The position numbers were made by a program, and so were the translations under genes. From Nemertoderma westbladi (taxonomy: Eukaryota > Animalia > Xenacoelomorpha): DNA of 59,446 nucleotides. The stretch spans positions 1 to 59,446 of the forward strand of contig JAUCBJ010003217.1 in assembly GCA_032718475.1 (NCBI GenBank), in the 5' to 3' direction. How positions within the stretch are numbered: the first letter of the stretch is position 1; each line of letters begins with the position of its first letter. Positions 11,401 to 55,692 of this stretch are shown piece by piece. The notes beneath the pieces are model-generated. The model saw only the letters and a program-made list of their open reading frames with translations, made no database searches and had not been told where the DNA came from.

Positions 11401-12010
11401 ACAACTTGCCCGGACGATATGTTGTATGTAAACAACTTGCCCGGACGATATGTTGTATGTAAACAACTCGCCCGGACGATTTGTTGTATGTAAACAACTC
11501 GCCCGGACGATATGTTTTATGTAAACAACTTGCCCGGACGATATGTTGTATGTAAACAACTTGCCCGGACGATTATGTTGTATGTAAACAACTAGCCCGG
11601 ACGATTATGTTGTATGTAAACAACTAGCCCGGACGATATGTTGTATGTAAACAACTTGCCCGGACGATATGTTGTATGTAAACAACTTGCCCGTACGATT
11701 ATGTTGTATGTAAACAACTAGCCCGGACGATATGTTGTATGTAAACAACTAGCCCGGACGATAAGCTGTATGTAAACAACTCGCCCGGACGATATGTTGT
11801 ATGTAAACAACTCGCCCGGACGATATGTTTTATGTAAACAACTTGCCCGGACGATATGTTGTATGTAAACAACTTGCCCGGACGATTATGTTGTATGTAA
11901 ACAACTCGCCCTGACGATATGTTGTATGTAAACAACTCGCCCGGACGATATGTTGTATGTAAACAACTCGCCCGGACGTTATGTTGTATGTAAACAACTC
12001 ATCCGGACGA
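5431..12010. repeat. 31-bp satellite, about 210 copies
   Basis: Unit AACTCGCCCGGACGATATGTTGTATGTAAAC with regionally clustered variants. The many ORFs called here are translations of the repeat. Confidence 0.98.
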
Positions 12011-14960: not shown

Positions 14961-15317
14961 CATCTTTAGGCTTTGGAGGTAGATAGGGAGGGGCATCTGG
15001 CGCATTTAGTTGCGTGGTAGCGGTCTTTGCACGGTTCAGTGCAGAATTTGCCTGGACAACCACCACATAGTGAGTGGAAGGGTATTGGGTTGATCTTGAT
15101 AAACTGGAGGTGGTAAAAGCCATGTGGGGTTATTCGGGTAATAACGTGGCCGTGGTGGATACGTTGACCAAATGAGTTTCCATTCGCCATGAGAGGCTGG
15201 ACCCCGGATGTAGCCAACATCTTCGAATATTTGGAGACGACTAGCGCGGAAGTTCTTATATTATTTATTATACAATTTATGGGGGAAGATTAATTCTACA
15301 AGACTTGATTCGTCGAC

Positions 15318-18300
15318 CATTTTTAAAGCATAGAGGGGGCAGATAGGTGCTGGCCGAGCATTCTTAAAGCATAGAGGAGACAGATGGGTGCTGGCCGAGC
15401 ATTCTTAGAGCATTGAGGAGGCAGATAGGTGCAGGCCGAGCATTCTTAAAGCATAGAGGAGGCAGATAGATGCAAGCCGTGCATTCTTAAAGCATAGAGG
15501 AGGCAGATAGGTGCTGGTCGAGCATTCTTAAAGCATAGAGGAGACAGATGGGTGCTGGCCGAGCATTCTTAAAGCATAGAGGAGGCAGATAGATGCAAGC
15601 CGTGCATTCTTAAAGCATAGAGGAGGCAGATAGGTGCTGGTCGAGCATTCTTAAAGCATAGAGGAGACAGATGGGTGCTGGCCGAGCATTCTTAAAGCAT
15701 AGAGGAGGCAGATGGGTGCTGGCCGAGCATTCTTAAAGCATAGAGGAGGCAGATAGATGCAAGCCGTGCATTCTTAAAGCATAGAGGAGGCAGATAGGTG
15801 CTGGTCGAGCATTCTTAAAGCATAGAGGAGACAGATATGTGCTGGCCGAGCATTCTTAAAGCATAGAGGAGACAGATGGGTGCTGGCCGAGCATTCTTAA
15901 AGCATAGAGGAGACAGATATGTGCTGGCCGAGCATTCTTAAAGCATAGAGGAGACAGATGGGTGCTGGCCGAGCATTCTTAAAGCATAGAGGAGGCAGAT
16001 AGGTGCTGGTCGAGCATTCTTAAAGCATAGAGGAGACAGATATGTGCTGGCCGAGCATTCTTAAAGCATAGAGGAGACAGATATGTGCTGGCCGAGCATT
16101 CTTAAAGCATAGAGGAGACAGATGGGTGCTGGCCGAGCATTCTTAAAGCATAGAGGAGGCAGATAGATGCAAGCCGTGCATTCTTAAAGCATAGAGGAGG
16201 CAGATAGGTGCTGGTCGAGCATTCTTAAAGCATAGAGGAGACAGATATGTGCTGGCCGAGCATTCTTAAAACATAGAGGAGACAGATGGGTGCTGGCCGA
16301 GCATTCTTAAAACATAGAGGATGCAGATGGGTGCAGGCCGAGCATTCTAAAAGCATAGAGGAGGCAGATAGGTGCAAGCCGAGCATTCTTAAAGCATAGA
16401 GGAGACAGATGGGTGCTGGCCGAGCATTCTTAAAGCATAGAGGAGACAGATGGGTGCTGGCCGAGCATTCTTAAAGCATAGAGGAGACAGATGGGTGCTG
16501 GCCGAGCATTCTTAAAACATAGAGGATGCAGATGGGTGCAGGCCGAGCATTCTAAAAGCATAGAGGAGGCAGATAGGTGCAAGCCGAGCATTCTTAAAGC
16601 ATAGAGGAGGCAGATAGGTGCTGGTCGAGCATTCTTAAAGCATAGATGAGACAGATGGGTGCTGGCCGAGCATTCTTAAAGCATAGAGGAGACAGATGGG
16701 TGCTGGCCGAGCATTCTTAGAGCATTGAGGAGGCAGATAGGTGCTGGCCGAGCATTCTTAAAGCATAGAGGAGACAGATGGGTGCTGGCCGAGCATTCTT
16801 AGAGCATTGAGGAGGCAGATAGGTGCAGGCCGAGCATTCTTAAAGCATAGAGGAGACAGATGGGTGCTGGCCGAGCATTATTAAAGCATAGAGGAGACAG
16901 ATGGGTGCTGGCCGAGCATTCTTAAAACATAGAGGATGCAGATGGGTGCAGGCCGAGCATTCTAAAAGCATAGAGGAGGCAGATGGGTGCTGGCCGAGCA
17001 TTCTTAGAGCATTGAGGAGGCAGATAGGTGCAGGCCGAGCATTCTTAAAGCATAGAGGAGACAGATGGGTGCTGGCCGAGCATTATTAAAGCATAGAGGA
17101 GACAGATGGGTGCTGGCCGAGCATTCTTAAAACATAGAGGATGCAGATGGGTGCAGGCCGAGCATTCTAAAAGCATAGAGGAGGCAGATAGATGCAAGCC
17201 GTGCATTCTTAAAGCATAGAGGAGGCAGATAGGTGCTGGTCGAGCATTCTTAAAGCATAGAGGAGACAGATGGGTGCTGGCCGAGCATTCTTAAAGCATA
17301 GAGGAGACAGATATGTGCTGGCCGAGCATTCTTAAAGCATAGAGGAGACAGATGGGTGCTGGCCGAGCATTCTTAAAGCATAGAGGAGACAGATGGGTGC
17401 TGGCCGAGCATTCTTAAAACATAGAGGATGCAGATGGGTGCAGGCCGAGCATTCTAAAAGCATAGAGGAGGCAGATAGGTGCAAGCCGAGCATTCTTAAA
17501 GCATAGAGGAGACAGATGGGTGCTGGCCGAGCATTCTTAAAGCATAGAGGAGACAGATGGGTGCTGGCCGAGCATTCTTAAAGCATAGAGGAGACAGATG
17601 GGTGCTGGCCGAGCATTCTTAAAACATAGAGGATGCAGATGGGTGCAGGCCGAGCATTCTAAAAGCATAGAGGAGGCAGATAGGTGCAAGCCGAGCATTC
17701 TTAAAGCATAGAGGAGACAGATGGGTGCTGGCCGAGCATTCTTAAAGCATAGAGGAGACAGATGGGTGCTGGCCGAGCATTCTTAAAACATAGAGGATGC
17801 AGATGGGTGCAGGCCGAGCATTCTAAAAGCATAGAGGAGGCAGATAGGTGCAAGCCGAGCATTCTTAAAGCATAGAGGAGACAGATGGGTGCTGGCCGAG
17901 CATTCTTAAAGCATAGAGGAGACAGATGGGTGCTGGCCGAGCATTCTTAAAACATAGAGGATGCAGATGGGTGCAGGCCGAGCATTCTAAAAGCATAGAG
18001 GAGGCAGATAGATGCAAGCCGTGCATTCTTAAAGCATAGAGGAGGCAGATAGGTGCAAGCCGAGCATTCTTAAAGCATAGAGGAGACAGATGGGTGCTGG
18101 CCGAGCATTCTTAAAGCATAGAGGAGACAGATATGTGCTGGCCGAGCATTCTTAAAGCATAGAGGAGACAGATGGGTGCTGGCCGAGCATTCTTAAAGCA
18201 TAGAGGAGACAGATGGGTGCTGGCCGAGCATTCTTAAAACATAGAGGATGCAGATGGGTGCAGGCCGAGCATTCTAAAAGCATAGAGGAGGCAGATAGGT

Positions 18301-21300
18301 GCAAGCCGAGCATTCTTAAAGCATAGAGGAGACAGATGGGTGCTGGCCGAGCATTCTTAAAGCATAGAGGAGACAGATGGGTGCTGGCCGAGCATTCTTA
18401 AAGCATAGAGGAGACAGATGGGTGCTGGCCGAGCATTCTTAAAACATAGAGGATGCAGATGGGTGCAGGCCGAGCATTCTAAAAGCATAGAGGAGGCAGA
18501 TAGGTGCAAGCCGAGCATTCTTAAAGCATAGAGGAGACAGATGGGTGCTGGCCGAGCATTCTTAAAGCATAGAGGAGACAGATGGGTGCTGGCCGAGCAT
18601 TCTTAAAACATAGAGGATGCAGATGGGTGCAGGCCGAGCATTCTAAAAGCATAGAGGAGGCAGATAGGTGCAAGCCGAGCATTCTTAAAGCATAGAGGAG
18701 ACAGATGGGTGCTGGCCGAGCATTCTTAAAGCATAGAGGAGACAGATGGGTGCTGGCCGAGCATTCTTAAAGCATAGAGGAGACAGATGGGTGCTGGCCG
18801 AGCATTCTTAAAACATAGAGGATGCAGATGGGTGCAGGCCGAGCATTCTAAAAGCATAGAGGAGGCAGATAGGTGCAAGCCGAGCATTCTTAAAGCATAG
18901 AGGAGGCAGATAGGTGCTGGTCGAGCATTCTTAAAGCATAGATGAGACAGATGGGTGCTGGCCGAGCATTCTTAAAGCATAGAGGAGACAGATGGGTGCT
19001 GGCCGAGCATTCTTAAAGCATAGAGGAGACAGATGGGTGCTGGCCGAGCATTCTTAAAACATAGAGGATGCAGATGGGTGCAGGCCGAGCATTCTAAAAG
19101 CATAGAGGAGGCAGATAGGTGCAAGCCGAGCATTCTTAAAGCATAGAGGAGGCAGATAGGTGCTGGCCGAGCATTCTTAAAGCATAGAGGAGGCAGATAG
19201 GTGCTGGCCAAGCATTCTTAAAGCATAGAGGAGGCGGCAGATAGGTGCAAGCCGAGCATTCTTAAAGCATAGAGGAGGCAGATAGGTGCTGGCCGAGCAT
19301 TCTTAAAGCATAGAGGAGGCAGATAGGTGCAAGCCGAGGATTCTTAAAGCCTAGAGGAGGCAGATAGGTGCTGGCCGAGCATTCTTAAAGCATAGAGGAG
19401 GCAGATAGGTGCAAGCCGAGCATTCTTAAAGCATAGAGGAGGCAGATAGGTGCTGGCCGAGCATTCTTAAAGCATAGAGGAGGTAGATAGGTGCTGGCCG
19501 AGCATTCTTAAAGCATAGAGGAGGCAGATAGGTGCAAGCCGAGGATTCTTAAAGCCTAGAGGAGGCAGATAGGTGCTGGCCGAGCATTCTTAAAGCATAG
19601 AGGAGGCAGATAGGTGCAAGCCGAGCATTCTTAAAGCATAGAGGAGGCAGATAGGTGCTGGCCGAGCATTCTTAAAGCATAGAGGAGGTAGATAGGTGCT
19701 GGCCGAGCATTCTTAAAGCATAGAGGAGGCAGATAGGTGCAGGCCGAGCATTCTTAAAGCATAGATGAGGCAGATGGGTGGGTGCTGGCCGAGCATTCTT
19801 AAAGCATAGAGCAGGCAGATAGGTGCTGGTCGAGCATTCTTAAAGCATAGAGGAGGCAGATAGGTGCAAGCCGAGCATTCTTAAAGCATAGAGGAGGCAG
19901 ATAGGTGCTGGCCGAGCATTCTTAAAGCATAGAGGAGGTAGATAGGTGCTGGCCGAGCATTCTTAAAGCATAGAGGAGGCAGATAGGTGCAGGCCGAGCA
20001 TTCTTAAAGCATAGATGAGGCAGATGGGTGGGTGCTGGCCGAGCATTCTTAAAGCATAGAGCAGGCAGATAGGTGCTGGCCGAGCATTCTTAAAGCATAG
20101 AGGAGACAGATGGGTGCTGGCCGAGCATTCTTAAAGCATAGAGGAGGCAGATAGGTGCTGGCCGAGCATTCTTAAAGCATAGAGGAGGCAGATGGGTGCT
20201 GGCCGAGCATTCTTAAAGCATAGAGGAGGCAGATGGGTGCTGGCCGAGCATTCTTAAAGCATAGAGGAGGCAGATGGGTGCTGGCCGAGCATTCTTAAAG
20301 CATAGAGGAGGCAGATAGGTGCAGGTCGAGCATTCTTAAAGCATAGATGAGGTAGATAGATGCTGGCCGAGCATTCTTAAAGCATAGGGGAGGTAGATAG
20401 GTGCAGGCCGAGCATTCTTAAAGCATAGATGAGGCAGATGGGTGGGTGCTGGCTGAGCATTCTTAAAGCATAGAGGAGGCAGATAGGTGCTGGCCGAGCA
20501 TTCTTAAAGCATAGAGGAGGCAGATAGGTGCTGGCCGAGCATTCTTAAAGCATAGAGGAGGCAGATAGGTGCAAGCCGAGCATTCATACAGCATAGGAGG
20601 AGGCATATAGGTGCAGGCCGAGCATTCTTAAAGCATAGAGGAGGCAGATAGGTGCTGGTCGAGCATTCTTAAAGCATAGAGGAGGCAGATAGGTGCTGGC
20701 CGAGCATTCTTAAAGCCTAGAGGAGGCAGATAGGTGCTGGCCGTGCATTCTTAAAGCATAGAGGAGGCAGATAGGTGCTGGCCGAGCATTCTTAAAGCAT
20801 AGAGGAGGCAGATGGGTGCTGGCCGAGCATTCTTAAAGCATAGAGGAGGCAGATAGGTGCAAGCCGAGCATTCTTAAAGCATAGAGGAGGCAGATAGGTG
20901 GAAGCCGAGCATTCTTAAAGCATAGAGGAGGCAGATAGGTGCTGGCCGAGCATTCTTAAAGCATAGAGGAGGCAGATGGGTGCTGGCCGAGCATTCTTAA
21001 AGCATAGAGGAGGCAGATGGGTGCTGGCCGAGCATTCTTAAAGCATAGAGGAGGCAGATGGGTGCTGGCCGAGCATTCTTAAAGCATAGAGGAGGCAGAT
21101 GGGTGCTGACCGAGCATTCTTAAAGCATAGAGGATGCAGATGGGTGCTGGCCGAGCATTCTTAAAGCACAGAGGAGGCAGATAGGTGCTGGCCGAGCATT
21201 CTTAAAGCATACAGTAGAGGAGGCAGATAAGTGCTGGCCGAGCATTCTTAAAGCATAGAGGAGGCAGATAGGTGCTGGCCGAGCATTCTTAAAGCATAGA

Positions 21301-21869
21301 GGAGGCAGATAGGTGCTGGCCGAGCATTCTTAAAGCATAGAGGAGGCAGATAGGTGCTGGCCGAGCATTCTTAAAGCATAGAGGAGGCCGATAGGTGCTG
21401 GCCGAGCATTCTTAAAGCATAGAGGAGGCAGATAGGTGGTGGCCGAGCATTGTTAAAGCATAGAGGAGGCAGATGGGTGCTGGCCGAGCATTCTTAAAGC
21501 ACAGAGGAGGCAGATAGGTGCTGGCCGAGCATTCTTAAAGCATAGAGGAGGCATATAGGTGCTGGCCGAGCATTCTTAAAGCATAGAGGAGGCAGATGGG
21601 TGCTGACCGAGCATTCTTAAAGCATAGAGGAGGCAGATGGGTGCTGGCCGAGCATTCTTAAAGCACAGAGGAGGCAGATAGGTGCTGGCCGAGCATTCTA
21701 AAAGCATACAGTAGAGGAGGCAGATAAGTGCTGGCCGAGCATTCTTAAAGCATAGAGGAGGCAGATATGTGCTGGCCGAGCATTCTTAAAGCATAGAGGA
21801 GGCAGATAGGTGCTGGCCGAGCATTCTTAAAGCATAGAGGAGGCAGATAGGTGCAAGCCGAGCATTCTT
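15318..21869. repeat. 41-bp satellite, about 160 copies, with local higher-order (3-4 monomer) structure
   Basis: Unit AAAGCATAGAGGAG(G/A)CAGAT(A/G)GGTGCTGGCCGAGCATTCTT. A block of variants (AAAACATAGAGGATGC...TTCTAAAAGC...CAAGCC) recurs at 16.3-19.1 kb. Confidence 0.98.
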
Positions 21870-26675: not shown

Positions 26676-29600
26676 GAAGAAGCAATCACGGAAACGGCCA
26701 ACAGTGTAACCACTGGGAAATGTAGTCTCTAAGAAGCAATCACGGAAACGGCCAACAGTGTAACCACTGGGAAGTGTAGTCTCTAAGAAGCAATCACGGA
26801 AACGGCCAACAGTGTAACCACTGGGAAATGTAGTCTCTAAGAAGCAATCACGGAAACGGCCAACAGTGTAACCACTGGGAAATGTAGTCTCTAAGAAGCA
26901 ATCACGGAAACGGCCAACAGTGTAACCACTGGGAAATGTAGTCTCTAAGAAGCAATCACGGAAACGGCCAACAGTGTAACCACTGGGAAATGTAGTCTCT
27001 AAGAAGCAATCACGGAAACGGCCAACAGTGTAACCACTGGGAAATGTAGTCTCTAAGAAGCAATCACGGAAACGGCCAACAGTGTAACCACTGGGAAGTG
27101 TAGTCTCTAAGAAGCAATCACGGAAACGGCCAACAGTGTAACCACTGGGAAATGTAGTCTCTAAGAAGCAATCACGGAAACGGCCAACAGTGTAACCACT
27201 GGGAAATGTAGTCTCTAAGAAGCAATCACGGAAACGGCCAACAGTGTAACCACTGGGAAATGTAGTCTCTAAGAAGCAATCACGGAAACGGCCAACAGTG
27301 TAACCACTGGGAAATGTAGTCTCTAAGAAGCAATCACGGAAACGGCCAACAGTGTAACCACTGGGAAATGTAGTCTCTAAGAAGCAATCACGGAAACGGC
27401 CAACAGTGTAACCACTGGGAAATGTAGTCTCTAAGAAGCAATCACGGAAACGGCCAACAGTGTAACCACTGGGAAATGTAGTCTCTAAGAAGCAATCACG
27501 GAAACGGCCAACAGTGTAACCACTGGGAAATGTAGTCTCTAAGAAGCAATCACGGAAACGACCAACAGTGTAACCACTGGGAAATGTAGTCTCTAAGAAG
27601 CAATAACGGAAACGACCAACAGTGTAACCACTGGGAAATGTAGTCTCTAAGAAGCAATAACGGAAACGTATAAACTAACCACTGGGAAATGTAGTCTCTA
27701 AGAAGCAATCACGGAAACGACCAACAGTGTAACCACTGGGAAATGTAGTCTCTAAGAAGCAATCACGGAAACGGCCAACAGTGTAACCACTGGGAAATGT
27801 AGTCTCTAAGAAGCAATCACGGAAACGACCAACAGTGTAACCACTGGGAAATGTAGTCTCTAAGAAGCAATCACGGAAACGTATAAACTAACCACTGGGA
27901 AATGTAGTCTCTAAGAAGCAATAACGGAAACGACCAACAGTGCAACCACTGGGAAATGTAGTCTCTAAGAAGCAATCACGGAAACGACCAACAGTGTAAC
28001 CACTGGGAAATGTAGTCTCTAAGAAGCAATCACGGAAACGTATAAACTAACCACTGGGAAATGTAGTCTCTAAGAAGCAATAACGGAAACGACCAACAGT
28101 GTAACCACTGGGAAGTGTAGTCTCTAAGAAGCAATCACGGAAACGTATAAACTAACCACTGGGAATGTAGTCTCTAAGAAGCAATAACGGAAACGTATAA
28201 ACTAACCACTGGGAAATGTAGTCTCTAAGAAGCAATCACGGAAACGACCAACAGTGTAACCACTGGGAAATGTAGTCTCTAAGAAGCAATCACGGAAACG
28301 TATAAACTAACCACTGGGAATGTAGTCTCTAAGAAGCAATCACGGAAACGGCCAACAGTGTAACCACTGGGAAGTGTAGTCTCTGAGAAGCAATCACGGA
28401 AACGACCAACAGTGTAACCACTGGGAAATGTAGTCTCTAAGAAGCAATCACGGAAACGACCAACAGTGTAACCACTGGGAAGTGTAGTCTCTAAGAAGCA
28501 ATCACGGAAACGACCAACAGTGTAACCACTGGGAAATGTAGTCTCTAAGAAGCAATCACGGAAACGTATAAACTAACCACTGGGAATGTAGTCTCTAAGA
28601 AGCAATAACGGAAACGTATAAACTAACCACTGGGAATGTAGTCTCTAAGAAGCAATAACGGAAACGACCAACAGTGTAACCACTGGGAAATGTAGTCTCT
28701 AAGAAGCAATAACGGAAACGACCAACAGTGTAACCACTGGGAAATGTAGTCTCTAAGAAGCAATCACGGAAACGGCCAACAGTGTAACCACTGGGAAATG
28801 TAGTCTCTAAGAAGCAATAACGGAAACGTATAAACTAACCACTGGGAATGTAGTCTCTAAGAAGCAATATCGGAAACGACCAACAGTGTAACCACTGGGA
28901 AATGTAGTCTCTAAGAAGCAATAACGGAAACGTATAAACTAACCACTGGGAATGTAGTCTCTAAGAAGCAATAACGGAAACGTATAAACTAACCACTGGG
29001 AATGTAGTCTCTAAGAAGCAATAACGGAAACGACCAACAGTGTAACCACTGGGAAGTGTAGTCTCTAAGAAGCAATCACGGAAACGACCAACAGTGTAAC
29101 CACTGGGAATGTAGTCTCTAAGAAGCAATCACGGAAACGGCCAACAGTGTAACCACTGGGAAGTGTAGTCTCTGAGAAGCAATCACGGAAACGACCAACA
29201 GTGTAACCACTGGGAAATGTAGTCTCTAAGAAGCAATCACGGAAACGACCAACAGTGTAACCACTGGGAAATGTAGTCTCTAAGAAGCAATCACGGAAAC
29301 GTATAAACTAACCACTGGGAATGTAGTCTCTAAGAAGCAATAACGGAAACGACCAACAGTGTAACAACTGGGAAATGTAGTCTCTAAGAAGCAATAACGG
29401 AAACGTATAAACTAACCACTGGGAAATGTAGTCTCTAAGAAGCAATCACGGAAACGGCCAACAGTGTAACCACTGGGAAATGTAGTCTCTAAGAAGCAAT
29501 AACGGAAACGACCAACAGTGTAACAACTGGGAAATGTAGTCTCTAAGAAGCAATCACGGAAACGACCAACAGTGTAACCACTGGGAAATGTAGTCTCTAA

Positions 29601-32600
29601 GAAGCAATCACGGAAACGGCCAACAGTGTAACCACTGGGAAATGTAGTCTCTAAGAAGCAATCACGGAAACGGCCAACCGTGTAACCACTGGGAAATGTA
29701 GTCTCTAAGAAGCAATCACGGAAACGACCAACAGTGTAACCACTGGGAAATGTAGTCTCTAAGAAGCAATCACGGAAACGACCAACAGTGTAACAACTGG
29801 GAAATGTAGTCTCTAAGAAGCAATCACGGAAACGGCCAACCGTGTAACCACTGGGAAATGTAGTCTCTAAGAAGCAATCACGGAAACGACCAACAGTGTA
29901 ACCACTGGGAAATGTAGTCTCTAAGAAGCAATCACGGAAACGACCAACAGTGTAACCACTGGGAAATGTAGTCTCTAAGAAGCAATCACGGAAACGACCA
30001 ACAGTGTAACCACTGGGAAATGTAGTCTCTAAGAAGCAATAACGGAAACGTATAAACTAACCACTGGGAATGTAGTCTCTAAGAAGCAATCACAGAAACG
30101 ACCAACAGTGTAACCACTGGGAAATGTAGTCTCTAAGAAGCAATAACGGAAACGTATAAACTAACCACTGGGAATGTAGTCTCTAAGAAGCAATAACGGA
30201 AACGACCAACAGTGTAACCACTGGGAAATGTAGTCTCTAAGAAGCAATCACGGAAACGGCCAACAGTGTAACCACTGGGAAATGTAGTCTCTAAGAAGCA
30301 ATCACGGAAACGGCCAACAGTGTAACCACTGGGAAATGTAGTCTCTAAGAAGCAATCACGGAAACGGCCAACAGTGTAACCACTGGGAAATGTAGTCTCT
30401 AAGAAGCAATCACGGAAACGGCCAACAGTGTAACCACTGGGAAATGTAGTCTCTAAGAAGCAATCACAGAAACGACCAACAGTGTAACCACTGGGAAATG
30501 TAGTCTCTAAGAAGCAATCACGGAAACGTATAAACTAACCACTGGGAATGTAGTCTCTAAGAAGCAATAACGGAAACGACCAACAGTGTAACCACTGGGA
30601 AATGTAGTCTCTAAGAAGCAATAACGGAAACGTATAAACTAACCACTGGGAATGTAGTCTCTAAGAAGCAATCACGGAAACGGCCAACAGTGTAACCACT
30701 GGGAAATGTAGTCTCTAAGAAGCAATCACGGAAACGGCCAACAGTGTAACCACTGGGAAATGTAGTCTCTAAGAAGCAATAACGGAAACGGCCAACAGTG
30801 TAACCACTGGGAAATGTAGTCTCTAAGAAGCAATCACGGAAACGGCCAACAGTGTAACCACTGGGAAATGTAGTCTCTAAGAAGCAATAACGGAAACGAC
30901 CAACAGTGTAACCACTGGGAAATGTAGTCTCTAAGAAGCAATCACGGAAACGACCAACAGTGTAACCACTGGGAAATGTAGTCTCTAAGAAGCAATCACG
31001 GAAACGGCCAACAGTGTAACCACTGGGAAATGTAGTCTCTAAGAAGCAATAACGGAAACGACCAACAGTGTAACCACTGGGAAATGTAGTCTCTAAGAAG
31101 CAATCACGGAAACGACCAACAGTGTAACCACTGGGAAATGTAGTCTCTAAGAAGCAATCACGGAAACGACCAACAGTGTAACCACTGGGAAATGTAGTCT
31201 CTAAGAAGCAATAACGGAAACGACCAACAGTGTAACCACTGGGAAATGTAGTCTCTAAGAAGCAATCACGGAAACGTATAAACTAACCACTGGGAAATGT
31301 AGTCTCTAAGAAGCAATAATGGAAACGACCAACAGTGTAACCACTGGGAAATGTAGTCTCTAAGAAGCAATCACGGAAACGACCAACAGTGTAACCACTG
31401 GGAAATGTAGTCTCTAAGAAGCAATCACGGAAACGACCAACAGTGTAACCACTGGGAAATGTAGTCTCTAAGAAGCAATAACGGAAACGACCAACAGTGT
31501 AACCACTGGGAAATGTAGTCTCTAAGAAGCAATCACGGAAACGACCAACAGTGTAACCACTGGGAAATGTAGTCTCTAAGAAGCAATCACGGAAACGACC
31601 AACAGTGTAACCACTGGGAAATGTAGTCTCTAAGAAGCAATAACGGAAACGACCAACAGTGTAACCACTGGGAAATGTAGTCTCTAAGAAGCAATAACGG
31701 AAACGGCCAACAGTGTAACCACTGGGAAATGTAGTCTCTAAGAAGCAATCACGGAAACGGCCAACAGTGTAACCACTGGGAAATGTAGTCTCTAAGAAGC
31801 AATCACGGAAACGGCCAACAGTGTAACCACTGGGAAATGTAGTCTCTAAGAAGCAATCACGGAAACGGCCAACAGTGTAACCACTGGGAAATGTAGTCTC
31901 TAAGAAGCAATAACGGAAACGACCAACAGTGTAACCACTGGGAAATCTAGTCTCTAAGAAGCAATCACGGAAACGGCCAACAGTGTAACCACTGGGAAAT
32001 GTAGTCTCTAAGAAGCAATCACGGAAACGGCCAACAGTGTAACCACTGGGAAATGTAGTCTCTAAGAAGCAATAACGGAAACGACCAACAGTGTAACCAC
32101 TGGGAAATCTAGTCTCTAAGAAGCAATCACGGAAACGGCCAACAGTGTAACCACTGGGAAATGTAGTCTCTAAGAAGCAATCACGGAAACGGCCAACAGT
32201 GTAACCACTGGGAAATGTAGTCTCTAAGAAGCAATAACGGAAACGACCAACAGTGTAACCACTGGGAAATGTAGTCTCTAAGAAGCAATCACGGAAACGG
32301 CCAACAGTGTAACCACTGGGAAATGTAGTCTCTAAGAAGCAATCACGGAAACGGCCAACAGTGTAACCACTGGGAAATGTAGTCTCTAAGAAGCAATCAC
32401 GGAAACGACCAACAGTGTAACCACTGGGAAATGTAGTCTCTAAGAAGCAATCACGGAAACGACCAACAGTGTAACCACTGGGAAATGTAGTCTCTAAGAA
32501 GCAATCACGGAAACGGCCAACAGTGTAACCACTGGGAAATGTAGTCTCTAAGAAGCAATCACGGAAACGACCAACAGTGTAACCACTGGGAAATGTAGTC

Positions 32601-34496
32601 TCTAAGAAGCAATAACGGAAACGTATAAACTAACCACTGGGAAATGTAGTCTCTAAGAAGCAATCACGGAAACGGCCAACAGTGTAACCACTGGGAAATG
32701 TAGTCTCTAAGAAGCAATCACGGAAACGGCCAACAGTGTAACCACTGGGAAATGTAGTCTCTAAGAAGCAATCACGGAAACGACCAACAGTGTAACCACT
32801 GGGAAATGTAGTCTCTAAGAAGCAATAACGGAAACGTATAAACTAACCACTGGGAAATGTAGTCTCTAAGAAGCAATCACGGAAACGGCCAACAGTGTAA
32901 CCACTGGGAAGTGTAGTCTCTAAGAAGCAATCACGGAAACGACCAACAGTGTAACCACTGGGAAATGTAGTCTCTAAGAAGCAATAACGGAAACGTATAA
33001 ACTAACCACTGGGAAATGTAGTCTCTAAGAAGCAATCACGGAAACGGCCAACAGTGTAACCACTGGGAAATGTAGTCTCTAAGAAGCAATCACGGAAACG
33101 ACCAACAGTGTAACCACTGGGAAATGTAGTCTCTAAGAAGCAATAACGGAAACGTATAAACTAACCACTGGGAAATGTAGTCTCTAAGAAGCAATCACGG
33201 AAACGGCCAACAGTGTAACCACTGGGAAGTGTAGTCTCTAAGAAGCAATCACGGAAACGACCAACAGTGTAACCACTGGGAAATGTAGTCTCTAAGAAGC
33301 AATAACGGAAACGTATAAACTAACCACTGGGAAATGTAGTCTCTAAGAAGCAATCACGGAAACGACCAACAGTGTAACCACTGGGAAATGTAGTCTCTAA
33401 GAAGCAATAACGGAAACGTATAAACTAACCACTGGGAAATGTAGTCTCTAAGAAGCAATAACGGAAACGACCAACAGTGTAACCACTGGGAAATGTAGTC
33501 TCTAAGAAGCAATCACGGAAACGTATAAACTAACCACTGGGAAATGTAGTCTCTAAGAAGCAATAACGGAAACGACCAACAGTGTAACCACTGGGAAATG
33601 TAGTCTCTAAGAAGCAATCACGGAAACGACCAACAGTGTAACCACTGGGAAATGTAGTCTCTAAGAAGCAATAACGGAAACGACCAACAGTGTAACCACT
33701 GGGAAATGTAGTCTCTAAGAAGCAATAACGGAAACGACCAACAGTGTAACCACTGGGAAATGTAGTCTCTAAGAAGCAATCACGGAAACGACCAACAGTG
33801 TTACCACTGGGAAATGTAGTCTCTAAGAAGCAATCACGGAAACGACCAACAGTGTAACCACTGGGAAATGTAGTCTCTAAGAAGCAATAACGGAAACGAC
33901 CAACAGTGTAACCACTGGGAAATGTAGTCTCTAAGAAGCAATCACGGAAACGACCAACAGTGTAACCACTGGGAAATGTAGTCTCTAAGAAGCAATAACG
34001 GAAACGACCAACAGTGTAACCACTGGGAAATGTAGTCTCTAAGAAGCAATAACGGAAACGTATAAACTAACCACTGGGAAATGTAGTCTCTAAGAAGCAA
34101 TAACGGAAACGACCAACAGTGTAACCACTGGGAAATGTAGTCTCTAAGAAGCAATCACGGAAACGACCAACAGTGTTACCACTGGGAAATGTAGTCTCTA
34201 AGAAGCAATCACGGAAACGACCAACAGTGTAACCACTGGGAAATGTAGTCTCTAAGAAGCAATAACGGAAACGACCAACAGTGTAACCACTGGGAAATGT
34301 AGTCTCTAAGAAGCAATCACGGAAACGACCAACAGTGTAACCACTGGGAAATGTAGTCTCTAAGAAGCAATAACGGAAACGACCAACAGTGTAACCACAG
34401 GGAAATGTAGTCTCTAAGAAGCAATCACGGAAACGTATAAACTAACCACTGGGAATGTAGTATCTAAGAAGCAATCACACCAACGACCAACAGTGT
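26676..34496. repeat. 54-bp satellite with a 50-51 bp variant, about 145 copies
   Basis: Unit AAGAAGCAATCACGGAAACG(G/A)CCAACAGTGTAACCACTGGGAAATGTAGTCTCT. The variant replaces (G/A)CCAACAGTG with TATAAAC. Confidence 0.98.
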
Positions 34497-46787: not shown

Positions 46788-47019
46788 ATGCCGGCGTGGA
46801 AACCCCAGTGTATGCGTGGAACGCCCCCAAGTGGCGAGGAACGGAGTTCGCCCAGTGGGGTGTCGAGTTTCCCAGTGAAACATAAAGGCGGGCAGGGTCC
46901 ACAGCTGGGTCGGTGCGTAGTCGAACTGTTACGAAATAGCGATGAATCTAAACTGGGAATAACTGTTACTGGAGGGGCGGATAGTGAATACAAGCCAAGA
47001 GTATCAGCTGTAAGACCAG
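46788..47019 (+). CDS. GRIP1: GRIP (glutamate receptor-interacting protein) family, coding exon 1 (N-terminus and start of PDZ1)
   Basis: MPAWKPQC...VVELLRNSDESKLGITVTGGADSEYKPRVSAVRPG resembles GRIP1b [41 protein letters not shown]. Donor CAG|GTTAGT, phase 1. An upstream in-frame ATG lies at 46755. GRIP1 versus GRIP2 orthology cannot be resolved. Confidence 0.88.
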
Positions 47020-48695
47020 GTTAGTGAATACAAGCCAAGAGTTATCAGCTGTAAGACCAGGTTAGTGAATACAAGCCAAGAGTTATCAGCTGTAAGACCA
47101 GGTCAGTTAATAATACAAACCCAACGGTATCAGCTGTAAGACCAGGTCAGTTAATACAGTACAAACCAAGAGTATCAGCTGTAAGACCAGGTTAGTGAAT
47201 ACAAACCCAACGATATCAGCTGTAAGACCAGGTTAGTGAATACAAACCAAGAGTATCAGCTGTAAGACCAGGTCAGTTAATAATACAAACCCAACGGTAT
47301 CAGCTGTAAGACCAGGTCAGTTAATACAGTACAAACCAAGAGTATCAGCTATAAGACCAGGTTTGTGAATACAAACCCAAGGATATCAGCTGTAAGACAA
47401 GGTCAGTTAATAATGCAAACCCAAGAGTATCGGCTGTAAGACCAGGTCAGTTAATAATACAAACACAAGGATATCAGCTGTAAGACCAGGTTAGTTAATA
47501 CAAACCAAGAGTATCAGATGTAAGACCAGGTCAGTTAATAATGCAAACCCAAGAGTATGGGCTGTAAGACCTGGTTAGTGAATACAAACCAAAGAATATC
47601 AGCTGTAAGACCAGGTCAGTTAATAATGCAAACCCAAGAGTATGGGTTGTAAGACCAGGTTAGTGAATACAAACCCAAGAATATCAGCTGTAAGACCTGG
47701 TCAGTTAATAATACAAACGTGGATATCAGCTGTAAGACCAGGTCAGTTAATAATGCAAACCCAAGAGTATCGGCTGTAAGACCAGGTCAGTTAATACAAA
47801 CCAAGAGTACCAACTGTAAGACCAGGTTAGTGAATACAAACCCAAGGATATCAGCTGTAAGACCAGGTCAGTTAATAATGCAAACCAAGAGTATCAGCTG
47901 TAAGAGCATGTCAATTTATACAAACCAAGAGTTTCAACTGTAAGACCAGGTTAGTTAATACAAACCAAGAGTATCAGCTGTAAGACCAGGTTAGTGAATA
48001 CAAACCCAAGAGTATGGGCTGTAAGACCATGTCAATTATTACAAACCAAGAGTTTCAGCTGTAAGACCAGGTTAGTTAATACAAACCAAGAGTATCAGCT
48101 GTAAGACGAGGCCAGTTAATACAAACCCAAGAATATCAGCGTTAAGACCAGGTCAGTTAATAATACAAACCCAAGGGTATCAGCTGTAAGACCAGGTCAG
48201 TTAATAATACAAACACAAGGATATCAGCTGTAAGACCAGGTTAGTGAATACAAACCCAAGAGTATGGGCTGTAAGACCATGTCAATTTATACAAACCAAG
48301 AGTTTCAACTGTAAGACCAGGTTAGTTAATACAAACCAAGAGTATCAGCTGTAAGACCAGGTTAGTGAATACAAACCCAAGAGTATGGGCTGTAAGACCA
48401 TGTCAATTATTACAAACCAAGAGTTTCAGCTGTAAGACCAGGTTAGTTAATACAAACCAAGAGTATCAGCTGTAAGACGAGGCCAGTTAATACAAACCCA
48501 AGAATATCAGCGTTAAGACCAGGTCAGTTAATAATACAAACCCAAGGGTATCAGCTGTAAGACCAGGTCAGTTAATAATACAAACACAAGGATATCAGCT
48601 GTAAGATCAGGTTAGTTAATACAAACCCAAGAGTATCAGCTGTAAGACCAGGTCAGTTAATAATGCAAACCTAAGAGTATGGGCTGTAAGACCAG
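46984..48695 (+). repeat. ~40-45 bp tandem array derived from the GRIP exon 1 end plus splice donor (left part, about 40 copies)
   Basis: Unit AATACAAACCCAAGAGTATCAGCTGTAAGACCAG|GT(T/C)AGT. The first unit is the coding sequence EYKPRVSAVRP. Confidence 0.95.
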
Positions 48696-49058
48696 TATGG
48701 TGGCCCATGAGTATCATAACAAAAAAATATATTTATATATTTTTAAATGAAATAAAAAAACTAATTTTAAAATGCATATGAAAAAAAATTCAAATAAAAA
48801 ATAAAATGCAATTTAAAATGGATTTTAAAGTCGATTTCAAAACGATTTTTAAAAGGCATTTTAAAACGCATTCACAACACGCAGCCCATGAGTATCATAA
48901 CAGACTGTCGTAATGGTAGCTGGCCCAGGAGTATCATATCGAACTGGCTGAGGATAGGCCTAACATGCGCATGCGCATACGCTACCTAGTTCCCTTGCTG
49001 CTAGCTGTAGAGTACCGGTAGTGCACTACTGTTGTACTGCACTACAGCAGAAGTCAGC
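48696..49058 (+). repeat. Left terminal inverted repeat (~363 bp)
   Basis: Aligns in reverse complement to 52813-53202 with a few substitutions and small indels. Confidence 0.92.
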
Positions 49059-49286
49059 AAGGCCTAACATCCGATGCCTACTGCATACTGCTACTGTGAT
49101 ACAGTACTGGAACTTGACTACTGGTACGGTACAGCAGTCAGGCAGTATGACTCGTTCGTTTCTGTGACCTGAAGGTGTAGAGTACCGGTAGTTGTACAGT
49201 TCGCATTTGTAGACTTCCTTTTCAGTATTACATTATTATATTTCAGTATTCCACTGTGTATATAGGCCTATGCGTATGTCTTGGAT

Positions 49287-50657
49287 ATGGCAGGAGTTGC
49301 GGGACAGAAAGGAAGAAAAACAAACATCAGCGATTTGGAGGCGAGACTGTCAGCGAAACGCACGAAGAGAGCGCAACAAGGTACTGGTGCTACCGGTAGA
49401 CTCAAATCCCCGCAATGGCTAACTGTACAAAAATTATCTGAACACTCTGGAGGTAGACTATCTAAATACGAACCGATTGGGCCTCGCCACTTTGTACCTT
49501 TCCAAGCTGACTATGAGGACCTAAGCATCACTAATATAAAGACTGCCTGTGAGGCATACTATGGTGAACCCGAGGGAAGTTGTGATGTTTTGGCTAGTGA
49601 GAGGGGCCCAAGCTGCTCTGACATCGAACAATTGGGATGTAAGAAGATTTACTTTGTCAGGTTTACTGGTGGTAGTAGTAGACCTAGTACTAGTAGCCAA
49701 CCTACCACGCCCGGTAGTGATGCTGCTGCAGGTGGTAAAGTGAGTACCGCACTGCAGGATTTAGAACCAAGTGACGGCGGTAGCTGTACTACTTATTCAT
49801 CTACCAATATGTTATCTAGGGAGTGGTCTTCACGGGCAGTTGAGAGTCCGAAGATTTATCCAAAATCTGTATCAGTGTCATGCTTAATAAAGGCAGGTAA
49901 ACTTATAGTAGATGATAAATACGTTGCTGTCACTATATGTCGTGAAGAATTTGATATTGAGCACTCCACTTGGAATATAGAGAAAGCCGGCAGATACAAG
50001 GTGTCCAAAGTACCTTTTGCGGAGGGTGGGTTTAGATCTGCCTACATGGCCTACAATTGCGATGGCAATGAAAAGTTTGTTGTGAAAAAATACAAACCCA
50101 GTGTGGAAGCAATGTTAACTGAGGAACTGGGAACAACCGTCGAATATCACACTCGAAAACAGGTACAAATGCATACCGTTGCTTCTACAATCACTGATTC
50201 ATTCTCGAAGTGTGTGAGTAATCTCGACGAAGATTTTGGAGAAACTTTCGTCTACAATAAGGTTTGGTTTGGGGTGATGGATTCATCTGAGAGGGAATTT
50301 ATTACAGTAGAGGAGCATGTACCTGGCACATTTATTAAATACATAAACAACTGTGGCACGGTAACAGATACGAGGGACCAAGACCTCAGCGATTACGAGC
50401 TGGATAACTATGATAAGGCGCAGGCGCTCGCCCATTACTCATATATACATACGAAGAAGAAGATAATGCTATTAGATATTCAGGGCACAGATCTGCGATT
50501 GTATGACCCTGAGATCGCCAGTAGAGAACTAACATATGACGACCAAGAGATATACTTTTGCGCAGGGAATTGCTCAGTGATCGGTATTGAAACCTTCCTC
50601 CTATCCCATAAATGCAACCGTTATTGCAAAATTATGCACCTCCATGAAAACACTTAG
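49287..50657 (+). CDS. Alpha-kinase (eEF2K/MHCK/TRPM7-kinase family), transposon-encoded, intronless, 456 aa
   Basis: PFAEGGFRSAY, FVVKKY, QVQMH, VEEHVPGTFIKYINNCG, AQALAHYSY, LLDIQG, YDPEI, and GNCS...F...HKCNRYC (Zn site). The N-terminal ~125-aa domain is unrecognised and is followed by a Ser/Thr-rich linker. Confidence 0.92.
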   Translation: MAGVAGQKGRKTNISDLEARLSAKRTKRAQQGTGATGRLKSPQWLTVQKLSEHSGGRLSKYEPIGPRHFVPFQADYEDLSITNIKTACEAYYGEPEGSCDVLASERGPSCSDIEQLGCKKIYFVRFTGGSSRPSTSSQPTTPGSDAAAGGKVSTALQDLEPSDGGSCTTYSSTNMLSREWSSRAVESPKIYPKSVSVSCLIKAGKLIVDDKYVAVTICREEFDIEHSTWNIEKAGRYKVSKVPFAEGGFRSAYMAYNCDGNEKFVVKKYKPSVEAMLTEELGTTVEYHTRKQVQMHTVASTITDSFSKCVSNLDEDFGETFVYNKVWFGVMDSSEREFITVEEHVPGTFIKYINNCGTVTDTRDQDLSDYELDNYDKAQALAHYSYIHTKKKIMLLDIQGTDLRLYDPEIASRELTYDDQEIYFCAGNCSVIGIETFLLSHKCNRYCKIMHLHENT

Positions 50658-51203
50658 TAGGCCTATCATATCATTCGTCATGTGACTCATGCAATAGAAC
50701 TTGCTTATAACTATAACTTGCTTTTTTATTTTAGCATAAGTTCTTTAGTTTTTCATACATTTTAGCCGGCAGCTAGTTTGGGTTTGGGCTGGGGTTACTA
50801 ACATTGAATAATACTAATATCTGGTTTGGTAAATTATCTAAATTGCAATGAAATTAATACCGGGGTAACTAACCCACGTTCTATTCCATACAGCGAAACT
50901 TATACATTTTTGGTTTTACTGTTTTTTTTTGTTGGTTTTTTTAGTTTTAGTGTTCGCTTTAAGTTTTAACTTTATTTAGTTGTTAGTTGTAGTAGTTTAG
51001 TTGAAATTTAATAATTACCTTGAAAATCCATGATTCCAATAGGGTATTCAGCAATCCGGATTATCATTGAAAATAACGTGTTAACTGTTAATACAATTTA
51101 CGTACTAGCCGTCCGGATTGCCAATGAAAATAAATGCCCAATCTGTTACATCCCTCCCTCTATAGCCTTATAATTATAATAAATATATATGTTTCTCTTT
51201 TAA

Positions 51204-52409
51204 CTATTCTTTAATTTTTTCTTTAAGATAAATGAAGACTTCCTTAGCATCACAACTCTTAATATTAGCGGGTTCTGGCAATATCTGAGTGCACTTTCTT
51301 ATAACCTCACAGTCCATAATACGGGTCTTACTATAGTCAGTGATACCTAGTTGCTCTGCAACCAGTTGCAAGTCATGTAAATCAAAATCGAGCGAGTATT
51401 TCTGGCCACCGTATGTTTCGGGAAAATCAAACATATGATTTGGAATTCCCGTTGGTAATCCTATCTTCTGTGCTCGAATTCTATGTGAGTTCCAGTTTGA
51501 CACGAACATATCGCAATCCTTCTGCACAATGGGTATGTAAACGTAGGCCATAACAAGCCTGTCATTTGCGTTATGTGGATCGTATTGATTCGTAACTAAC
51601 AGATCTGTAAGTTGATCCTTATAATACATTTCCATGCGTTCGTGAAGATCCCTCCACCATCGTTCAATTTTATTGGTCGTGGAAGGCCCAAATATTATAG
51701 CTTCTGTTGGGTCATCCATAATATCTTGTTGATCTATAAGGTATGAATGCAATGTAGCTAGCTTACCCATCTCGGTACCTCTATCGCACCTAATGAACAC
51801 TGGCATACACTTTATTTCAGTAAGTAAATCATAATATAGTGAGGCGATAGCTAAAGGCTGTGAGTTGGAGAATAAAACATTGATTTTAAGTACTTTTCTA
51901 GAATAAGTATCTAAAAACGCAAAAACCCCCAGGGGAAATGTACTGTTTTGGTATCCACATAATTTGTCGTGGCCGTCTATACTCAGCGTCTGAAAAGAAC
52001 CACCACTTTCAAATAGACTTCTCACACGTTTATCTTTAAACCTGGGTGTCCTTTCTTCAGTACCTCTTGGATCAACGTCTCGTAGTATGTCCGAAACTAG
52101 GCTACGTGGAACTTTTAAGTTATGTTTATCACGGAGAACTTGATGCATTCCTCTATATCCAAGTTTCTGAGAAGGGCCGTCTAACTCACTAACTATAGCA
52201 GCCATAACGATCTGCGGATCACAGTCATCTATATACCTAATTTCAAAATGCTTCATGCGGCGACTTAATGTGGCCAAACTCCATGCATATTCATCAAAAT
52301 CGCGTTCCATGTAGTTAAGAATCTCCATTTTTTTGTAGTTTTTCTTTACATACCAAGCCAAAGCCGCTTTAAGAATCTTGTCATCCTTCCATTCTGTTCG
52401 TGGTGGCAT
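51204..52409 (-). CDS. Integrase-core (RNase H fold) DDE transposase, 401 aa from ATG 52409
   Basis: N-terminal HTH-like region (SLATLSRRMKHFEI; LGYRGMHQVL). Catalytic motifs SIDGHDKL, DTYSRK, IRCDRGTE and GPSTTNKIERWWRDL, then WNSHRIR...P.GIP. Confidence 0.9.
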   Translation of the reverse strand: MPPRTEWKDDKILKAALAWYVKKNYKKMEILNYMERDFDEYAWSLATLSRRMKHFEIRYIDDCDPQIVMAAIVSELDGPSQKLGYRGMHQVLRDKHNLKVPRSLVSDILRDVDPRGTEERTPRFKDKRVRSLFESGGSFQTLSIDGHDKLCGYQNSTFPLGVFAFLDTYSRKVLKINVLFSNSQPLAIASLYYDLLTEIKCMPVFIRCDRGTEMGKLATLHSYLIDQQDIMDDPTEAIIFGPSTTNKIERWWRDLHERMEMYYKDQLTDLLVTNQYDPHNANDRLVMAYVYIPIVQKDCDMFVSNWNSHRIRAQKIGLPTGIPNHMFDFPETYGGQKYSLDFDLHDLQLVAEQLGITDYSKTRIMDCEVIRKCTQILPEPANIKSCDAKEVFIYLKEKIKE

Positions 52410-52812
52410 AGCAGTATAGCGAGGCAATCGATGTCGTCCAATATAAATATAATAATGAAATTTCAATGTATGCGGTTTACTACCGGTAGCAGTTTCTGAA
52501 TAACAGCAGAACAGATAACAGCATTGGCACAAAGTCAATCAACGTACAGACGTACCGGTGACCGGTACCTGCAATCTATCAGTGGTCACTGGTCACCCTA
52601 CAGCCCTATACTGCTATAGGCTAATAATAGCCTGGGTATTTCTGTATTTATATAGCCATACTGCGAACTGCCATAGTCTTATACAGTTAGTTATAGTGCT
52701 TTTCTACGCTCAGCATACTCAAAGCAAAGAGCTTATTCAGTTACAGGTACCGGTACGCCTAGGGCCTTGCCACAAGTGCCACAACCGCAGAACCGATACC
52801 ACTACTGCACTA

Positions 52813-53202
52813 GCTGACTTCTGCTGTTCTGATTCTGTCTAGTGCAGTTCAACAGTAGTGCACTACCGGTACTCTACAGCTGGCAGCAAGGGAACTAGGT
52901 AGCCTGCCGTATGCGCATGCGCGCGCATGCGCATGTTAGGCCTATCCTCTGACAGTTCGATATGATACTCCTGGGCCAGCTACCATTACGACAGTCTGTT
53001 ATGATACTCATGGGCTGCGTGTTGTGAATGCGTTTTAAAATGCCTTTTAAAAATCGTTTTGAAATCGACTTTAAAATACATTTTAAATTGCATTTTATTT
53101 TTTGTTTGAATTTTTTTCATTTGCATTTTAAAATTAGTTTTTTTATTTCATTTAAAATTATATAAATATATTTTTTTGTTATGATACTCATGGGCCACCA
53201 TA
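52813..53202 (-). repeat. Right terminal inverted repeat (~390 bp)
   Basis: Reverse complement of 48696-49058. Confidence 0.92.
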
Positions 53203-53988
53203 GACCAGGTCAGTTAATAATGCAAACCCAAGGATATCAGCTGTAAGACCAGGTTAGTTAATACAAACCCAAGAGTATCAGCTGTAAGATCAGGATAGTT
53301 AATACATACCCAATAGTATCAGCTGTAAGACCAGGTCAGTTAATCAAGGGTATCAGCTGTAAGACCAGGTCAGTTAATAATACAAACACAAGGATATCAG
53401 CTATAAGACCAGGTTAGTTAATACAAACCCAAGAGCATCAGCTGTAAGACGAGGCCAGTTAAGACAAACCAAGAGTATCAGCTGTAAGACCAGGTCAGTT
53501 AATACAAACCCAAGTCAGCTGTAAAACCGGGTCAGTTAATACAAACCCAAGGGAAGGGTATCAGCTGTTAGACCAGGTCTGCTAATACAAACCCAAGGAT
53601 ATCAGCTGTACGACCAGGTCAGTTAATAATACCATGGTTATCAAGAGCATGTCAGTTTATTACAAATCCAAGGGTATCAGCTGTAAGACCCGGTTAATTA
53701 ATACAAACTCTAGGCTATCAGCTGTAAGTGTAAGACCAGGTCAGTTAATACAAACAAGGGTATCAGCTGTAAATGTAAGACCAGGTCAGTTAATACAAAC
53801 CCAAGGGTATCTGCTAGAAGGCCAGTTCAGTTAATAATACAAACCCAGGGGTATAAGCTGTAAAAGACCAGCTGTCATTTAATATAAACCCAAGGGTATA
53901 TGCTGTAAGACCAGGTCAGGTAATAATACAAACCCATGGGTATCAAGAGCAGGTCAGTTACTACAAACCCAAGGGTATCAGCTGTAAG
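53203..53988 (+). repeat. Continuation of the GRIP intron 1 donor array (right, more degenerate part, about 18 copies)
   Basis: The same TATCAGCTGTAAGACCAGGTCAGTTAATACAAACCCAAG unit resumes exactly after the TSD. Confidence 0.93.
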
Positions 53989-54228
53989 ATCTCATTAGTG
54001 GTGGTCGTGGCTGGACGGCGTTTTAATTGATTGAGTTGCAACAATGATCTTCCTATACTTTCAATTCTTCATTTATCCCTTGACTGACGAACATGTCATT
54101 TTTAGTTATAGATTTGCCTCTATTCCATCTTCATATCGAATCTTCTATAATAAATATTATTAGGGGCCGTTCTTTAAGGAGGTCCGAGAAAACCTTTGAT
54201 ATTTTTAACGACGTAATTTAATTTGCAG

Positions 54229-54370
54229 GAAGTGTTTCTTATCGATCTGATCTGGTTTGCGTTGGAGACTACATAACGGCAATAAACGGGATATCGACGG
54301 AATCGTTGAAACACAAAGAGATAGTAGCTTTAATGAGAAACGTTGGACTGAGACTGGTTCTAGAGATAGA
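54229..54370 (+). CDS. GRIP1: GRIP coding exon 2 (remainder of PDZ1), absent from the ORF track
   Basis: Acceptor TTTGCAG| and donor |GTTAGT. 142 bp, phase 1 to phase 2. Encodes GSVSYRSDLVCVGDYITAINGISTESLKHKEIVALMRNVGLRLVLEIE (cf. GRIP1 RSDQLDVGDYIKAVNGI...[20 protein letters not shown]). Confidence 0.92.
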
Positions 54371-54796: not shown

Positions 54797-54956
54797 GTAC
54801 GAAATACCATGTGCGCCATCTTACGTCGCTGGTATGAACATAAAACTTAAAACGGTGGATGTTTTTTTATCGAAGGAGGGCGATTCTGTCGGTTTAACTT
54901 TACGAGGGGGAGTTCAGGAGACCACCGGATATTGTAGTTCCCTTACAGTTACACAA
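54797..54956 (+). CDS. GRIP1: GRIP coding exon 3 (start of PDZ2); the gene continues beyond what I can identify here
   Basis: Acceptor TTTTCTTTTGTTCCAG| and donor CAA|GTAAGT. The frame joins exon 2. Encodes YEIPCAPSYVAGMNIKLKTVDVFLSKEGDSVGLTLRGGVQETTGYCSSLTVTQ (cf. GRIP1 YELP...[21 protein letters not shown]). Confidence 0.9.
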
Positions 54957-55692
54957 GTAAGTCCATTCCTTACAGTTACACAAGTAAGTCCATTCCTTAC
55001 AGTTACACAAGTAAGTCAATTCCTTACAGTTACACAAGTAAGTCCATTCCTTACAGTTACACAAGTAAGTCCATTCCTTACAGTTACACAAGTAAGTCCA
55101 TTCCTTACAGTTACACAAGTAAGTCCATTTCTTACAGATACACAAGTAAGTCCATTCCTTACAGTTACACAAGTAAGTCCATTCCTTACAGTTACACAAG
55201 TAAGTCAATTCCTTACAGTTACACAAGTAAGTCCATTCCTTACAGTTACACAAGTAAGTCCATTCCTTACAGTTACACAAGTAAGTCCATTCCTTACAGT
55301 TACACAAGTAAGTCCATTCCTTACAGTTACACAAGTAAGTCCATTCCTTACAGTTACACAAGAAAGTCCATTCCATACAGTTACACAAGTAAGTCCATTC
55401 CTTACAGTTACACAAGTAAGTCCATTCCTTACAGTTACACAAGTAAGTCCATTCCTTACAGTTACACAAGTAAGTACATTCCTTACAGTTACAAAAGTAA
55501 GTCCATTCCTTACAGTTACACAAGTAAGTCCATTACTTACAGTTACACAAGTAGGTCCATTCCTTAACAGTTACACAAGTAAGTCCATTACTTACAGTTA
55601 CACAAGTAAGTCCATTCCTTACAGTTACACAAGTAAGTCCATTCCTTACAGTTACACAAGTAAGTCCATTCCTTACAGTTACACAAGTAAGT
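54941..55692 (+). repeat. 27-bp tandem array derived from the GRIP exon 3 end plus splice donor, about 28 copies
   Basis: Unit CCTTACAGTTACACAA|GTAAGTCCATT. The first unit is the coding LTVTQ plus the real donor. Confidence 0.97.

Follow-up and report, generated by a model that had tools for sequence, protein, structure and literature searches.

The closest described relatives of the element reported here are the IS3EU transposons of fungi, for which section 4.1 of Kojima (2025; PMC12730594) gives 6-bp target site duplications (TSDs), TAYGG..CCRTA ends, and oppositely oriented genes for a transposase and an alpha-kinase. IS3EU elements were also described as encoding two proteins in the available part of PMC8232023, and their structure and function were called largely unexplored in that of PMC11934779, while the accessible text of PMC13343696 adds nothing further on the kinase. 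Here, an IS3EU element was analyzed in a contig of the animal Nemertoderma westbladi (JAUCBJ010003217.1, assembly GCA_032718475.1; the whole 59,446-nt stretch is referred to as the window). The pairing of the two genes, the novelty of which was implied in an initial annotation of this DNA, is already in print for the fungal elements; what is new is the co-inheritance and selection of the kinase on the animal side.

Similar to the TET-containing elements of rust fungi (IS3EU-1_PGra and IS3EU-7_PSt), the window element possesses the same type of ends, terminal inverted repeats (TIRs) of >30 bp, a 6-bp TSD and an opposed gene pair. It differs from them, as they are presented in the available part of PMC12730594, in its animal host, in lacking a TET/JBP gene between the pair, and in being compact and intronless; there, the TET cargo is proposed to counter silencing, while the kinase is given no stated function or domain description. 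The animal elements IS3EU-1_DR and IS3EU-1_HM (Kojima and Bao, 2023, PMC10045372) share by eye the DDE core motifs, as well as TA..TA ends, a 6-bp TSD and the absence of HHCC, and have their first D 100–300 residues from the start, which D145 of the window transposase fits; the accessible text of that paper holds no match for kinase. GingerRoot (Cerbin et al., 2019, PMC6839031), assigned to the same transposase lineage in PMC10045372, has a 6-bp TSD and TA..TA ends too, but unlike the window element carries TIRs of 100–150 bp and variable host gene fragments, with the kinase unmentioned in the portion available. The features of the window element are as follows.

48690..48695, + strand: left copy of the 6-bp TSD, GACCAG (from the sequence)
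48696-53202: IS3EU element, 4,507 bp, begins TATGG and finishes CCATA
48696..49057, + strand: left TIR, 362 bp, begins TATGG (TIR alignment)
49287..50657, + strand: alpha-kinase open reading frame (ORF), 456 aa (PF02816, E 1e-30)
49398..49682, + strand: N-terminal kinase domain with a predicted beta-grasp (ubiquitin-like) fold, aa ~38-132 (structure model, Foldseek, VIA)
50658..51203, no strand: 3′ region common to the two convergent ORFs, with AATAAA/ATTAAA-type signals on both strands
51204..52409, − strand: IS3EU-type DDE transposase, 401 aa, intronless (PF24764 rva_4, E 3.3e-18)
52829..53202, − strand: right TIR, 374 bp, finishes CCATA (TIR alignment; an A>G-rich contig overlies 52836-53203)
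53203..53208, + strand: right copy of the 6-bp TSD, GACCAG (from the sequence)

Co-inheritance and selection of the kinase

To collect relatives, metagenome contigs were scanned with the transposase alignment alone, and the best 80 of 201 related stretches were used. Of the transposase-picked loci, 32 extend at least 1 kb downstream; a convergent kinase was present in 29 of these, or 20 of 23 when clustered at 90% identity. With the threshold lowered to 700 bp, the figure was 33 of 40. Altogether, 39 of the best 80 loci gave a kinase match, which lay on the strand opposite to the transposase in all 39. The loci L023, L045, and L074, each with at least 1 kb downstream, gave neither a kinase nor a weak match of note. 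Further, a complete 3.5-kb IS3EU-like element (L070:82-3562), the first 11 bases of which are identical to those of the window element and which has no matching TSD, gave no kinase match; its transposase is distant (30%) and interrupted.

The distances of the two genes were then compared over 30 loci with both, the window included, which were reduced to 23 distinct ones; L004 and L006 were excluded, as their neighboring kinase lies upstream. Kinase and transposase distances were correlated (Mantel rho 0.62, p 0.0005), and the two trees had 9 of 20 splits in common, compared with a maximum of 3 in the shuffled null. Only three pairs were unsaturated; in these, the ratio of nonsynonymous to synonymous substitution rates (dN/dS) of the kinase was 0.13 (L076/L078) and 0.26 (L071 vs. 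either L072 or L073), and near-saturated pairs gave 0.24–0.48. Among same-species runs, 7 of the 9 coding differences among those listed were synonymous (p 0.001), and relatives of the kinase kept the catalytic residues at ~40% overall identity. Two Exaiptasia relatives carry neighboring gene numbers, each on a contig equal in length. These comparisons demonstrated that the kinase is under purifying selection and co-inherited with the transposase, and they support the proposal of the initial annotation that it is a dedicated accessory gene of the element.

Structure of the element and its transposase

The two TIRs agree at 350 of 377 alignment columns (93%), and the element contains only two ATG ORFs of at least 80 aa, both uninterrupted and convergent. 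The alignment, the ORF list and the satellite register check thus bore out the earlier description of TIRs and a perfect 6-bp TSD around exactly two intact convergent ORFs. The ORFs start 230 bp (kinase) and 420 bp (transposase) from the inner TIR ends, near the distances quoted before, but inward of the TIRs rather than within them. The register check was made since the element interrupts a host minisatellite, each unit of which has one GACCAG-type hexamer. No tandem GACCAGGACCAG was found elsewhere in the window, and when the element and one hexamer were excised in silico, the register of the satellite units was restored, showing that the element splits one unit exactly there. Based on the single hexamer per unit, the lack of another doubled copy in the window and the restored register, a chance TSD out of the satellite was ruled out, and the TSD is regarded as genuine. 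With this TSD, the TATGG..CCATA termini bordering long TIRs, a DDE transposase lacking HHCC, and an alpha-kinase opposite in orientation to it, the element presents the features described for IS3EU/GingerRoot elements, with the transposase motifs compared by eye. It is almost certainly an intact, multi-copy IS3EU/GingerRoot cut-and-paste transposon, and no second copy was found within the window.

The left TIR contains a ~16-bp motif three times (at 48703, 48884, and 48923) and one 12-bp AT-rich array. The copies of the ~16-bp motif are likely putative transposase-binding sites; from what is known of DDE transposons, the transposase would bind such repeated TIR motifs, excise the element and insert it with a 6-bp stagger. 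The 3′ untranslated regions of the convergent ORFs probably overlap within the shared 3′ region.

The transposase residues D145, D209, and E249 were invariant in 50 of 50 aligned sequences. The core motifs match by eye the Repbase IS3EU rows of the alignment supplementing PMC10045372, a source that in its available part also gives TA..TA ends for IS3EU. A search of solved structures with the transposase profile gave no match (best E 0.12). Relative transposases of near-full length numbered 41, of which 24 span >60 nt beyond their coding length (introns or insertions); the window copy is intronless. Upstream of the transposase, ~33 nt (52692-52725) also occur in an abundant dispersed repeat, and many contigs join or leave there in 4 of 4 runs.

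Predicted domains and possible target of the kinase

The kinase ORF product is predicted to be a Ser/Thr alpha-kinase, with the PF02816 profile, the fold, and the catalytic and Zn-site residues all found, and is presumably active. The structure model (mean pLDDT 83) comprises a basic N-terminal helix (aa 14-30), a folded domain (~38-132), a disordered linker (130-183) and the alpha-kinase domain (~210-456), and a basic KRTKR patch at aa 24 could be a candidate nuclear signal. In 57 aligned sequences, K267 was kept in 56, H383, D397, Q399, G400, D407, P408, and E409 in all 57, and the Zn-site residues H441, C443, and C447 in 55, 55, and 54, respectively; in alpha-kinases, these residues serve catalysis and Zn binding. 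The ATP-binding Lys and the DIQG/DPEI and H..HxCxxxC motifs noticed earlier are therefore retained across the aligned sequences. The predicted structure of the catalytic domain matched MHCK A with a Z of 25.6 (root-mean-square deviation 1.6 over 208 residues), TRPM7 with 25.1 and eEF2K, also among the fold matches, with 21.1. Compared with host alpha-kinases (MHCK A, TRPM7 ChaK, eEF2K, ALPK1, and the Entamoeba alpha-kinase; fold Z 18.5–25.6), the window kinase is alike in catalytic and Zn-site motifs, but it shares only 19–28% identity with them, stands alone at 456 aa, has a predicted ubiquitin-like N-terminus and is encoded by a mobile element.

The N-terminal domain, folded alone, reached a pLDDT of 90. 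SUMO/ubiquitin-like rows ranked on top in Foldseek (best E 0.0026, a modest value), and beta-grasp domains dominated the VIA list, with a best Z of 6.6 (rmsd 3.5 over 76 residues) that is below the clear level of that tool, Z 8; ESM Atlas returned one unnamed match (0.75). These matches are modest and consistent with a predicted ubiquitin-like (beta-grasp) fold. The domain has no C-terminal diGly and is therefore read as an integral docking domain, which would serve as a docking module within the kinase. Its profile retrieved 1,064 protein clusters at 50% identity, and it is nearly always fused to a kinase: among the best 150 of these clusters, 49 of 50 proteins of at least 250 aa matched the kinase-region profile. 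Pfam found an alpha-kinase in 22 of 32 chosen longer proteins with the domain, and missed several shorter ones. A lone protein joining the domain to an rve integrase (P0364) was discounted, being probably a nested insertion or an artifact of gene calling. Outside Repbase Reports and the Kojima 2019 review, either of which may cover them, the literature held no description of this domain and no characterized function for the module, the latter as the initial annotation had presumed; the predicted ubiquitin-like domain on the kinase is new here with respect to the literature searched.

Cnidarians, tunicates, and one mollusc are the sources of the named protein relatives, whose database labels copy host kinases (eEF2K, TRPM6-like, vwkA-like). 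Many invertebrate annotations of these three kinds are suggested to be transposon genes, by which counts of host kinase families would be inflated. Among viral contigs, none of 75 pattern matches was confirmed as a kinase relative, and no longer or fused kinase forms (799–2,280 aa) were found among 5,497 candidates, which is weak evidence.

As to its role, we tentatively favor, at a little below an even chance, that the kinase targets a host chromatin, silencing or repair factor. It would dock on such a nuclear protein through the predicted ubiquitin-like domain and phosphorylate it, favoring expression or movement of the element. We lean to a host target because relatives of the element apparently transpose with no kinase of their own (L070, and the GingerRoot and REP9 papers), because another IS3EU cargo, TET, is proposed to counter silencing (PMC12730594, as far as available), and because the host appears to edit the element RNA (37 of 44 differences being A>G, see below); the candidate nuclear signal KRTKR points the same way. 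That the kinase is instead a transposition cofactor, phosphorylating or binding its own transposase and so switching its activity, stability or localization, is less probable but a serious alternative, for which the two-protein systems of Harbinger and RAG1/RAG2 offer analogies. Tight co-inheritance, the correlated distances and the retention of the pair in both animals (this study) and rust fungi all suit a cofactor, as do 14 transposase Ser/Thr positions at which 40 or more of the 50 sequences have S/T, among them S243-T245 immediately before the catalytic E249; however, Ser/Thr conservation close to an active site is expected structurally, the complete relative L070 has no detectable kinase, and the GingerRoot (PMC6839031) and REP9/Styx descriptions, in their available parts, name none in the element. 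A predicted complex of transposase and kinase (score 0.28, mark 0.34) counts neither for nor against an interaction. It is quite improbable that the kinase works as a selfish toxin or a stress effector, for instance by an eEF2K-like block of translation or by the death of cells from which the element has been lost: eEF2K is an alpha-kinase and among the fold matches, but less similar than MHCK A and TRPM7, the element with its two ORFs has no antidote gene, and it appears multi-copy and transcribed. The toxin or defense effector considered in the initial annotation thus drew no support from this analysis. Passive cargo, in the sense of a host gene that was acquired a single time and has drifted since, is barely credible. 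The host-like names of relatives and the three loci without a kinase would agree with it, but the constant orientation, the catalytic residues kept in divergent relatives, dN/dS well below 1 and the kinase's own N-terminal domain would not; a one-off capture, absent from relatives and evolving neutrally, was rejected based on co-occurrence and selection.

Several observations weigh against a dedicated kinase acting on a host factor. The kinase was absent from 3 of the 32 loci, and 11 of the 20 tree splits differ, the position of the window element itself included, which possibly reflects poor resolution or kinase swapping. The unsaturated dN/dS values come from three pairs, two of them independent; the beta-grasp evidence is modest; and a 1-bp deletion in an A run of the kinase ORF (at 50085) was seen in run X1, described below. 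The missing word "kinase" in a paper is a weak sign of a kinase-less element. Selection is purifying, not positive, and thereby offers no hint of arms-race evolution against a host factor, while the pair is kept from animals to rust fungi despite their differing silencing systems, which an element-encoded substrate would fit equally. Substrate, activity, localization and docking of the kinase are all predictions from sequence and models. A wider proposal, that animal IS3EU elements carry a large clade of mobile alpha-kinases (>1,000 clusters at 50% identity) that dock by ubiquitin/SUMO mimicry and shut off host silencing by phosphorylation, is doubtful; should the kinase indeed disable host silencing, eukaryotic DNA transposons would have a counter-defense of a new kind. 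The pairing being known and unexplained, a young, intact and intronless copy is a ready reagent for asking the role of a transposon-borne protein kinase.

Copies, transcripts and the host locus

The element interior was recovered as long contigs in three DNA runs (two samples), with 1–5 differences each, at a depth ~5–9-fold that of a flank contig; as depth is no copy number, this points only roughly to several copies that are nearly identical. Contigs stop at the element end, where loose ends carry at least two other flanks. The window copy is regarded as young.

A further run, X1, is entered as "DNA?" without a library record. Its contigs have loose ends which we take to be the SMART template-switch oligo, and based on these SMART-like ends, uneven depth and a longest record of 11.6 kb, it is likely complementary DNA (cDNA). 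X1 covers both ORFs. A 422-nt contig of this run has an adapter-like start at 52836, runs outward across the right TIR (to 53203) and enters another flank. It bears 37 A>G changes among 44 differences, over 95 adenosines, with the strand taken from the adapter-like end. Of 29 listed A>G sites, 25 follow U or A, compared with a background of 61/95 (p 0.008), in line with the neighbor preference of ADAR. The three DNA runs, which are from other samples, lack these changes where covered, and the edited contig is a single one. The TIRs are able to pair over 350 bases. The changes on the right-TIR transcript are likely ADAR hyper-editing, and the host appears to handle the element RNA as double-stranded RNA. 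In metazoans, young repeats, DNA transposons among them, are known to be edited (PMC9989829, in its available part); the likely hyper-edited TIR transcript is new here with respect to the literature searched. The twin inward-facing promoters once suggested for the TIRs were not confirmed, as the three adapter-marked cDNA ends listed point outward, which is neither proof nor exclusion.

Two other X1 contigs involve subterminal sequence. A 97-nt contig joins the regions at 49106 and 52794, skipping both ORFs; the skipped part is GT..AG on the minus strand, the short side is 27 nt, and the junction could stem from splicing, from a copy with a deletion or from a template switch. An 867-nt contig with a depth of 1,210 has an adapter-like end followed by 67 nt of left subterminal sequence (49082-49148) and then unrelated sequence, and is possibly a host transcript begun in element-derived DNA.

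The host features around the element are the following.

46983..53989, + strand: minisatellite of the host with 41-bp units, into which the element is inserted (repeat analysis)
~47022-54229, + strand: host intron of a GRIP1-like gene, splitting PDZ1 (exon matches in a PDB search)

The exons on either side match GRIP1 PDZ1 in the PDB search (E 2.4e-6 and 1.5e-14), and the intron that houses the element is therefore assigned to a GRIP1-like animal gene on the + strand; Pfam recognized neither of the two host exon pieces. Any empty-site allele is masked by the satellite. The 41-bp unit reproduces the final codons and the GT donor of a PDZ1 exon, and the 27-bp unit of another minisatellite (54941-55692) reproduces the end of the next PDZ exon plus its splice donor; the two arrays thus resemble amplified ends of GRIP1-like exons together with their donors. 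The transposon insertion point lies exactly at a repeated exon/donor junction. Three more very long minisatellites occur in the window, at 5444-12010, 15314-21869, and 26677-34496, with units of 31, 41, and 54 bp and 147–210 copies.

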